Positions 3,304 to 8,565 of a stretch of 13,122 nucleotides of DNA are shown here, piece by piece. A model generated the notes under the pieces. It worked only from the letters and a program-made list of their open reading frames with translations, did not search any database and was not told where the DNA came from. The stretch's first letter is position 1. The number at the start of each line of letters is the position of its first letter. The translations under genes and the position numbers were made by a program. Origin of the DNA: Candidatus Helarchaeota archaeon. GTDB lineage: Archaea; Asgardarchaeota; Lokiarchaeia; Helarchaeales; RDOG01. The stretch lies in the NCBI GenBank assembly GCA_029838215.1, contig JALGVI010000082.1:1-13122 (forward strand), written 5' to 3'.

Positions 3304-4230
3304 GTGTTTCATTCGATTTATATTCTAAAAGATAATGGTGTCTGCTTATATACAAGGCATTATAAACCGGGCAGGGCTGATGATCAATTAATTTCAGGAT
3401 TTATGAGTGCATTCGGGAGCTTCGCAACGGAGGCACTGGGTTCTGAATTGCAGTCCATCCGTCTTAGGACACACGAGAGATTATCAATATTGCGTTACTA
3501 GCGCGCTCCCATACTCGGTATAATAATTGCAGATACTCGAGACCATCCGCATCTCATCTCGTCATTGTTGTCGGAGATTCTGGATGCATTTGATGTCGAA
3601 TTTCATGATGAGTTGGCTTCAAATAATCCATTAACGACTTTTAATTCCGGACGATTTGACAAGCAAGTTGACAAGATACTAAAAGGCAAGATTTCAAAAC
3701 GAACATTTACGAAAATGCTGATCGGGAACCTGTTATCATTCACTCTCATAATCTTGCTTGCCATTTTCCTGCTTACGGGCTTGTTGAGGTTATCTCCTTT
3801 CATAATACAAGAGGTGAAGTTGTTTCCAATCATAAATTTTTCTGATGGTCTAAATTCAACGGAGTTTTTTGTCTTGGAGTTAATCGTTGGAGGTGTTTCC
3901 TTGTTCATGATAACGTTGTGCATCTTCGTGTTTTTCCTTCCCGCTCTTCTTTCGGGTTATTTTGCGGGAAACATGCTACGCGGGATGATAAGTGCCATTC
4001 TACTCGGCTTTTTTACGGGTGTAATTCTATTTTTGGCTGGATCAGCGGCGGAAATACTCTATGGTGAGATAAATATCTTCTGGTTCTTTTTATTATATTC
4101 TCCCCTTTTACTTTTGATTGCAATAACATGTGGTTTATTCGGCGGTTATGTTAAACAGCGCCTTAAGCTCTATCCATTAGAAAAAGAAATTATATTGGAA
4201 ATGACAATCACGAAGAGAAGAACGACCTGA
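3304..4230 (+). CDS. Longin-domain protein with about 4 C-terminal TM segments, interrupted by one in-frame TAG at 3499-3501 (read-through CDS or recent pseudogene)
   Basis: Track ORFs 3304..3501 and 3565..4230 share a frame; codons 3502-3564 are open (RAPILGIIIADTRDHPHLISS). The joined sequence MFHSIYILKDNGVCLY...DQLISGFMSAFGSFA...ILRY*RAPILGIIIAD...LLSEILDAF...FDKQVDKIL reads as a continuous longin fold followed by hydrophobic segments. Confidence 0.75.
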
Positions 4231-4645
4231 TCCTGCTGAATAAATTTTTTTCTTCGATTTTTTTGTAATAATCTTCGATTTGTTTTTCAAGCATCTGGGT
4301 GAATTCCTTAAAGATGGTCTGATCGCCATCCCAATTTTTCAAGTAATCCTTGTAATAATCATGGAAACTATCGAGAGCAAATTCAGCTTCGCCACGTATG
4401 TCTTTCTTCTTCATGCCTGATTCCATCACGGCTATGAGGATTAACTCATGCCTGTATACGATGAACAGATCAATGTCTAGTCCCTTTATCAGAATTTCTT
4501 CAATTCTTCCGAGATTTTCTTCTCCAAAGACACTTAATGCACTTATAAAAGCTGAGATTAAATCTCCATTAAGAACATTATCCTTAATGACGCTAATAAA
4601 CGGGCGTCCGTCCTTGCCTGCTATGATAACGGCTTTCATCGACAT
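4208..4645 (-). CDS. Longin-fold protein (Asgard type)
   Basis: 145 aa, AVIIAGKDGRPF, DLISAFISALSVF, LILIAVM, WDGDQTIFKEF follow the longin beta-beta-alpha-beta-beta-beta-alpha-alpha pattern. Overlaps the convergent gene by 23 bp. Confidence 0.75.
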   Translation of the reverse strand: MSMKAVIIAGKDGRPFISVIKDNVLNGDLISAFISALSVFGEENLGRIEEILIKGLDIDLFIVYRHELILIAVMESGMKKKDIRGEAEFALDSFHDYYKDYLKNWDGDQTIFKEFTQMLEKQIEDYYKKIEEKNLFSRIRSFFSS

Positions 4646-8007: not shown

Positions 8008-8565
8008 GTGATAGCGATCCGAGAACACGGAATAAAGGCGATAAAATTGAATATTAATGACATACCAGATCACGTTAAACAGAACATAAGTACGGGTGAA
8101 GAAATCATCTCGACATTCATGGGAAACGTAAAATTTGGTAAGAAAAGCTATTCAAAAGTACTGTGCATACTAACAACTGAAAAATTCATGGCCGACACGA
8201 AAAAAGCCCTGGAAAAACTATTTCTTACTAATATCATCTCAACTGAACGGAAGAAAGCAAAAATCACCTTACACGGAATGTTACGGTCGGGTGATGAGTT
8301 AAAAGTCATCATTGAAGTTTTAAAAAATCCCGGTGAAAAGAAAGATGCTTTTAATAGCCGGCTTGAAGAATTTGAGAAAAATTTCGATGTTTTTTCACAA
8401 AGTGCAACTGAAGAACCCAAAGAAGTTGCTTTAAATAACGATAATAAACCCACTCCACAAAGTGGTACAGAAAGTACTCCTGTAAGACGGTTTTGCCCCA
8501 ATTGCGGGTCAAAATTGCCTGAAGGTGGTAAATTCTGCGCGAATTGCGGGACAAAAGTGATGTGA
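8008..8565 (+). CDS. Zinc-ribbon protein with a possible N-terminal PH-like domain
   Basis: C-terminal CPNCGSKLPEGGKFCANCGTK (two CxxC) after a low-complexity linker; EEIISTF...LCILTTEK resembles prokaryotic PH-fold domains (weaker call). Confidence 0.75.
   Translation: MIAIREHGIKAIKLNINDIPDHVKQNISTGEEIISTFMGNVKFGKKSYSKVLCILTTEKFMADTKKALEKLFLTNIISTERKKAKITLHGMLRSGDELKVIIEVLKNPGEKKDAFNSRLEEFEKNFDVFSQSATEEPKEVALNNDNKPTPQSGTESTPVRRFCPNCGSKLPEGGKFCANCGTKVM

Follow-up and report, generated by a model that had tools for sequence, protein, structure and literature searches.

An in-frame TAG in a longin-membrane protein gene of a Helarchaeota archaeon is probably an ordinary premature stop

The window, by which we mean the whole stretch of 13,122 nucleotides that was analysed, corresponds to contig C40 of a Candidatus Helarchaeota assembly (G000; 3.62 Mb, 170 contigs, 38.6% G+C, 94.3% complete, 6.2% contamination). 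Its genes are archaeal and include those for eIF-6, prefoldin alpha, an archaeal D-aminoacyl-tRNA deacylase, FtsY, L18Ae and an ADP-forming acyl-CoA synthetase. Among them, on the plus strand, lies a frame of 308 codons that opens with GTG at 3304 and closes with TGA at 4228-4230; as the first-pass annotation had stated for this 927-nt frame, its sole interruption is a TAG at 3499-3501 (codon 66, context TAC TAG CGC). The TAG divides the frame into a 5' fragment (3304..3501, plus strand) of 65 sense codons including the GTG, which covers only strands 1-4 and helix 1 of a longin domain, and a 3' remainder (3502..4230, plus strand) of 242 sense codons and the TGA, which is open and alignable to orthologues. 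The longin-fold domain comprises residues 1-106 (3304..3621), and four membrane helices are predicted at residues ~135-282 (3706..4151) from hydrophobic stretches in the translation that are also helical in a full-length structural model. The first candidate starts past the TAG in the same frame are a TTG (3565, codon 88) and the ATG of codon 138, and database gene calls represent the locus as a 65-aa product (P0019) and a 171-aa protein beginning at M138 (P0003). A convergent gene on the minus strand (4208..4645), overlapping the 3' end of the interrupted gene by 23 bp, encodes a 145-aa longin-only paralogue, the neighbouring longin of the first-pass annotation, which aligns with the N-domain family and is 18% identical to the read-through protein (P0001).

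Since AF2, given 10 sequences of full length, modelled the N-domain poorly (pLDDT < 50, with 60-80 in the membrane helices), a model of the N-domain built from 107 sequences was used instead. In this model the N-terminal 122 residues reach a pLDDT of 90 and adopt the order strand-strand-helix-strand-strand-strand-helix, and codon 66 falls between the strands at 58-64 and 70-77; the stop had been proposed to lie in a beta-turn of a longin domain whose fold continues beyond it, and the predicted strand 4/strand 5 hairpin loop bears this out. The top Foldseek match of the N-domain is TRAPP Bet5/TRAPPC1 (TM 0.76, E 2e-6), followed by LAMTOR/roadblock, AP sigma/mu and Mon1-Ccz1 proteins; there were 84 matches at E <= 1e-3 and, among the matches listed, all were longin or roadblock proteins. 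A sequence profile of the N-domain reaches Bet5, Mon1, AP-3 mu and VAMP7 at E values of 7e-4 to 0.03. Pfam gave no match for the read-through protein; some orthologues weakly match Longin and Sybindin, and no family member exceeds the gathering score of Longin (PF13774), which three of 10 orthologues match at E >= 0.023. On these models and profiles, the label "longin domain" is justified as a statement on the fold.

The interrupted gene belongs to a large family, with at least 17 matches in this genome, several of them full length. Searched against 1.84 billion representative sequences, the N-domain profile retrieved 1174 clusters at E <= 1e-3, and family matches were present in all 41 of the Lokiarchaeia-class genomes searched; as far as seen, the longin-membrane family is limited to Asgard-type archaea. 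The family domain occurs either fused to four membrane helices or alone, and is without Pfam coverage.

The frame had been said to continue past the stop, and full-length homologues indeed align on both sides of it, gap-free at the stop itself. At 34-53% identity, the read-through product aligns end to end with proteins of 293-308 residues encoded by Helarchaeota and by related metagenomes, its best homologue giving an E value of 9e-97 at 52% identity and the homologue in a further genome, G005, 50% identity over residues 1-302. The closest named relatives of the gene are in Helarchaeota metagenome-assembled genomes, which, together with the archaeal neighbouring genes, marks the organism as an Asgard archaeon of the Helarchaeales type; even among 5.8 billion sequences the nearest proteins are just 52-53% identical. 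As this alignment and the 55 invariant columns spread over both sides of codon 66 extend across the TAG, the continuity over the stop cannot be attributed to chance. Codon 66 itself is a variable column in a surface loop, not in an active site: its aligned residues in orthologues are P, P, Y, S, S, T, N, T and N, together with Q (CAA) in G005 and T (ACG) at the Hel_GB_A locus (L113). None of the 12 orthologues examined has a stop there, all having a sense codon for Q, P, Y, S, T or N; the orthologue residues, named at the outset as a check on recoding, are thus ordinary and variable, with no conserved special residue. Nor was there any length change at codon 66 relative to the nearest orthologues, and a variable column of the same length in those proteins argues against a hidden intron. 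No bulge-helix-bulge (BHB) could be drawn at codon 66 in the local fold, and an intron was consequently rejected on both grounds. RNA structure over 3455-3545 was unremarkable (z = 0.33; 121 of 200 shuffled sequences fold as well). An exact pattern across the TAG, with NNN at codon 66, found no match in metagenome contigs.

The interrupted copy is divergent. Its terminal branch measures 0.88, against at most 0.38 for each terminal branch of its sister group, and in 12 of 35 near-invariant columns it alone deviates, as compared with 2-4 such columns for the other proteins; most of its lineage-specific substitutions are conservative. Judged from these alignments, the long branch and the lone-deviant columns would fit relaxed constraint, but the branch length is not specific, given that the homologue in G001, a genome of the same family, has an even longer one. 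No shared neighbours were found at the orthologue loci within the short flanks compared.

We then considered how TAG is used in the genome as a whole. The window's complete genes end in TAA (7), TGA (7) and TAG (1), exactly as first tallied, and the one TAG, which had appeared from the beginning to be a true stop, terminates a PIN_2 gene at full profile length. The expectation that TAG would be scarce yet in use as a stop also held genome-wide, with TAG ending 160 of 1367 long ORFs (11.7%). Conserved genes were next selected in which the alignment with the G001 homologue extends to the homologue's last residues. In 19 of these 201 genes the first stop is a TAG that lies no more than 5 codons from the homologue's end, with a median offset of 0; this coincidence implies that TAG functions as a terminator in this organism. 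In-frame stops flanked by coding sequence, counted where coding potential lay on both sides of the stop and no ORF competed in another frame, comprised 31 TAA, 20 TGA and 8 TAG among 59, and hence no excess of TAG (13.6% against its 11.7% share of terminators). A Pfam domain spanned the stop in none of the 7 other TAG junctions and in none of 10 TAA/TGA junctions, which represent separate adjacent genes.

Because the first junction filter (no start within 8 codons past the stop) missed a TAG on contig C23, a homology scan was added in which 973 ORFs from 1.2 Mb of G001 were compared with the whole assembly, yielding ~560 homologue comparisons. Internal TAG or TGA codons at C68:9703 and C84:9249 and on C44, C86 and C5 were rejected as antisense or off-frame shadows of conserved genes, and after removal of such wrong-frame shadows three internal stops were left, one TAG and two TGA. 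The TAG (C23:61503) lies within a putative mini-intron described below, so that this analysis of in-frame TAGs, of a kind likewise suggested at the outset, revealed no other sense-like internal TAG in these comparisons. The two in-frame TGAs, at C12:27592 and C144:10919, occupy the same position in two paralogues matched by a single 656-aa G001 query (E 1e-140 and 1e-154) and are aligned with Glu; they may be selenocysteine sites. Separately, a zinc-ribbon ORF at C82:993-1040 has its first CPYC upstream of any ATG, GTG or TTG, in a frame reading M-I-TAG-ATA-GAT...; for the TAG at C82:993, a non-AUG start at the ATA directly after it accounts for the frame no less well than amber read-through does.

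The C23 TAG opens a 33-nt insert (C23:61503-61535; L120:704-736) between the DTPGH and VDLS motifs of an EF-2 paralogue, and is the only other internal TAG in the ~560 comparisons. Orthologues in six other genomes are without this insert, and a G001 contig (C6; L124, minus strand, ~3328-3358) has a frame-breaking insert of 31 nt at the same site. Both inserts can be drawn by hand as a helix, a 3-nt bulge, a 4-bp helix, a second 3-nt bulge and a helix, with an outer helix UCCA/UGGA, a central helix GGUC/GACC or GGUC/GACU, and differing inner helices; when each bulge is cut behind its second base, CAU|GUG (His-Val) is re-formed. The computed minimum-energy fold of the G000 insert has a 5-bp central helix, slightly unlike the hand drawing. 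We regard the insert as a candidate tRNA-type (BHB) mRNA mini-intron, with no sense TAG.

Other genes, too, look broken in the assembly. When 564 G001 ORFs with a length of 150 aa or more were compared, about 17 of them matched G000 as two pieces in different frames, that is, ~3% of the conserved genes sampled, typically with 34-82 nt missing relative to the homologue. Such sites occur at C118:833, C6:15582-15588, C154:791-799, C25:3620-3627, C61:19313-19340, C101:10320-10328, C77:33087-33105 and C16:18477-18515, and contig-end cases on C107 (an EF-2 fragment), C120, C86, C83 and C81. In the C118 gene, whose pieces are 84% and 80% identical to the homologue, a loss of 34 nt deletes a CCG cysteine motif, and in the C6 gene (66% and 76%) 40 nt are lost. 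Assembly defects or real decay may lie behind these frame-split genes, as may some other cause. A conserved gene of 490 aa on C102 is interrupted at ~8115-8220, where ~50 nt (TCTGAAAACATGACAGTTCCTGAAAAAACGGTTTTGCTCGT...) are duplicated in tandem.

The boldest proposal of the first-pass annotation was decoding of codon 66 as pyrrolysine or by another form of amber recoding. The genome was searched with TIGR02367 and TIGR03910, the HMMs of the Asgard Pyl screen of Sun et al. (PMC9723677), to which the pylC and pylD models TIGR03909 and TIGR03911 were added; the Methanosarcina (M. acetivorans) positive control exceeded the cut-off with each Pyl model. In G000, the PylS model (TIGR02367), whose cut-off is 178 bits, scored at best 30.7 and 29 bits, both with other class II synthetases, and the best pylB, pylC and pylD scores were 44.5, 26 and 24 bits against cut-offs of 348, 248 and 150; the sub-threshold matches are unrelated paralogues. 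MttB (PF06253, MTTB) had no match, so that no protein of the set passed its cut-off and the proposal found no support. A CUA anticodon was seen in none of the 28 Infernal RF00005 tRNA matches nor in default ARAGORN runs, searches whose recall is poor for the intron-rich tRNA genes of this genome. Standard tools recover just 18-28 tRNA genes in the 94%-complete assembly, several of them with introns of 10-46 nt, and a 2026 preprint describes tRNA genes of this lineage as split by several introns and missed by standard tools; with detection this incomplete and intron-hampered, claims of absent tRNAs in G000 are weak. ARAGORN at relaxed thresholds produced thousands of meaningless "tRNA-Pyl/Sec/Stop" calls, which were discarded.

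We conclude, with a probability of roughly 0.58, that the TAG at 3499-3501 is an ordinary premature stop, a recent nonsense mutation that has left a pseudogene or a null allele. A recent nonsense mutation was the last alternative listed by the first-pass annotation and is the one that the evidence favours. Under this explanation the TAG would be read as an ordinary stop and would have arisen when one base was substituted in a variable loop codon of a single copy within the large longin-plus-four-helix family, possibly from a Gln codon (CAG to TAG; the nearest orthologue has Gln as CAA). The product would be a 65-residue fragment unable to form the longin fold, so that this copy would be a pseudogene inactivated not long ago, or else a null allele present in the sampled population. 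The change would be recent because the 242 downstream codons are open and all family-invariant residues are kept, and with at least 17 family matches in the genome, several full length, the loss of one copy would be affordable. We infer that the base truly lies in the organism's DNA, as a mutation and not an error, and that no full-length protein is produced from the interrupted gene; the intact frame past the stop and the mostly conservative substitutions would be compatible with continued expression of the gene as well.

A second ordinary option, which the first-pass annotation did not include, is that the TAG is absent from the organism and that the real gene has a sense codon at position 66, the assembly having introduced a consensus error or fixed a minority strain variant. 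The intact downstream frame and invariant residues are what such an error would leave, and the assembly has many defects, with ~17 of 564 genes split between frames, very conserved ones included, a duplication on C102 and 6.2% contamination. The defects of G000 are, however, indels, deletions and contig-end problems, not substitutions, and apart from the intron TAG and the two candidate selenocysteine TGAs no other substitution-type nonsense appeared in the ~560 comparisons; the long terminal branch, too, better matches real decay. We accordingly consider an error possible but rather unlikely. A functional membrane-only protein produced by re-initiation at TTG 3565 or at the ATG of codon 138 would make the locus a split gene, for which one can cite the in-frame starts themselves, the database gene call that begins at M138 and the conserved residues kept in the membrane part; yet among the matches listed in the size range of that part, all but P0003 carry the N-terminal domain, and a recent change explains the intactness equally well, making a split gene very unlikely.

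Forms of decoding through the stop fare no better. UAG followed by C might be partly read by a near-cognate tRNA or a CUA tRNA that escaped detection, possibly as a regulated switch. The base at +4 is indeed C, the rarest context among the true TAG terminators of the genome (13%) and a weak hint of read-through at most; the frame past codon 66 is intact, and tRNA genes do escape standard detection (28 found). Against such leakiness, no orthologue has a stop at codon 66, no stable RNA structure lies at or past it (z = 0.33), TAG ends conserved genes exactly at their homologue ends and no other gene has a sense-like TAG. We therefore give leaky termination or a hidden suppressor little credence, and slightly less to its fuller version, in which partial read-through in the absence of a Pyl system yields a short fragment plus a low level of the full-length longin-membrane protein. 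The suggested regulated switch between the 65-aa fragment and the full membrane protein likewise finds no support in the orthologues, which have no stop there, or in the RNA fold. As for pyrrolysine, the in-frame TAG and the occurrence of Pyl systems in Sifarchaeia, one class of Asgard archaea (Sun et al. 2021, PMC9723677), are what can be said for it; pylS, pylB, pylC, pylD and MttB are absent, no tRNA-Pyl was found among the 28 tRNA genes recovered, the only in-frame UAG of Sifarchaeia lies in MtbB (PMC9723677), and the site here is a surface loop, not an active site, with no conserved special residue in orthologues. Insertion of pyrrolysine at UAG 66 is thus extremely unlikely and, within the limits of a 94%-complete genome, refuted. 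Essentially, we found no Pyl machinery, no other internal sense TAG and ordinary orthologue residues, the very combination that the first-pass annotation had itself named as telling against recoding. Even taken together, all forms of decoding through the stop remain highly improbable.

We see at codon 66 no new use of the genetic code, but either the ordinary breakage of one gene copy or an error in the sequence. The analysis is of value mainly as a negative result, in which a recoding claim for an in-frame TAG is set aside. Asgard genomes recode UGA as selenocysteine. Because of this, and because one class uses pyrrolysine, an in-frame TAG in a eukaryote-like Asgard protein invites a recoding claim. 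Internal stops in G000 arise in two ordinary ways, from mini-introns and from broken assembly, and both need to be eliminated before any further recoding claim for this genome. For annotation, the 65-aa and 171-aa calls ought to be joined into a single entry, marked as an interrupted longin-membrane gene. Of more interest than the stop at codon 66 are the longin-membrane protein family and the EF-2 mini-intron.

The fold of this family is shared with the longin and roadblock proteins, namely TRAPP Bet5, Mon1-Ccz1, the AP sigma/mu N-domains, LAMTOR and MglB, and unlike in those proteins it is here fused to four membrane helices. In-frame stops are also placed in conserved genes by BHB mini-introns such as that of the EF-2 paralogue and the tRNA-type intron in the cbf5 protein gene of Crenarchaeota (PMC2738675), for which reason an intron had to be excluded at codon 66; in contrast to those cases, the gene has no extra sequence at codon 66 when set against its nearest orthologues, and no BHB can be drawn. 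With the Sifarchaeia Pyl case (PMC9723677) the locus has in common an in-frame UAG in an Asgard archaeal gene. It differs from pylTSBCD decoding in that no pyl genes, no MttB match and, among the 28 tRNA genes recovered, no tRNA-Pyl were found, and from Pyl amber decoding in general in that the protein is a non-methyltransferase, the position is variable and TAG is a normal terminator. The resemblance is to ordinary nonsense pseudogenes or null alleles of multigene families: here too, a single stop at a non-conserved codon interrupts a frame that is intact elsewhere, the genome contains many paralogues, and the terminal branch is elevated.
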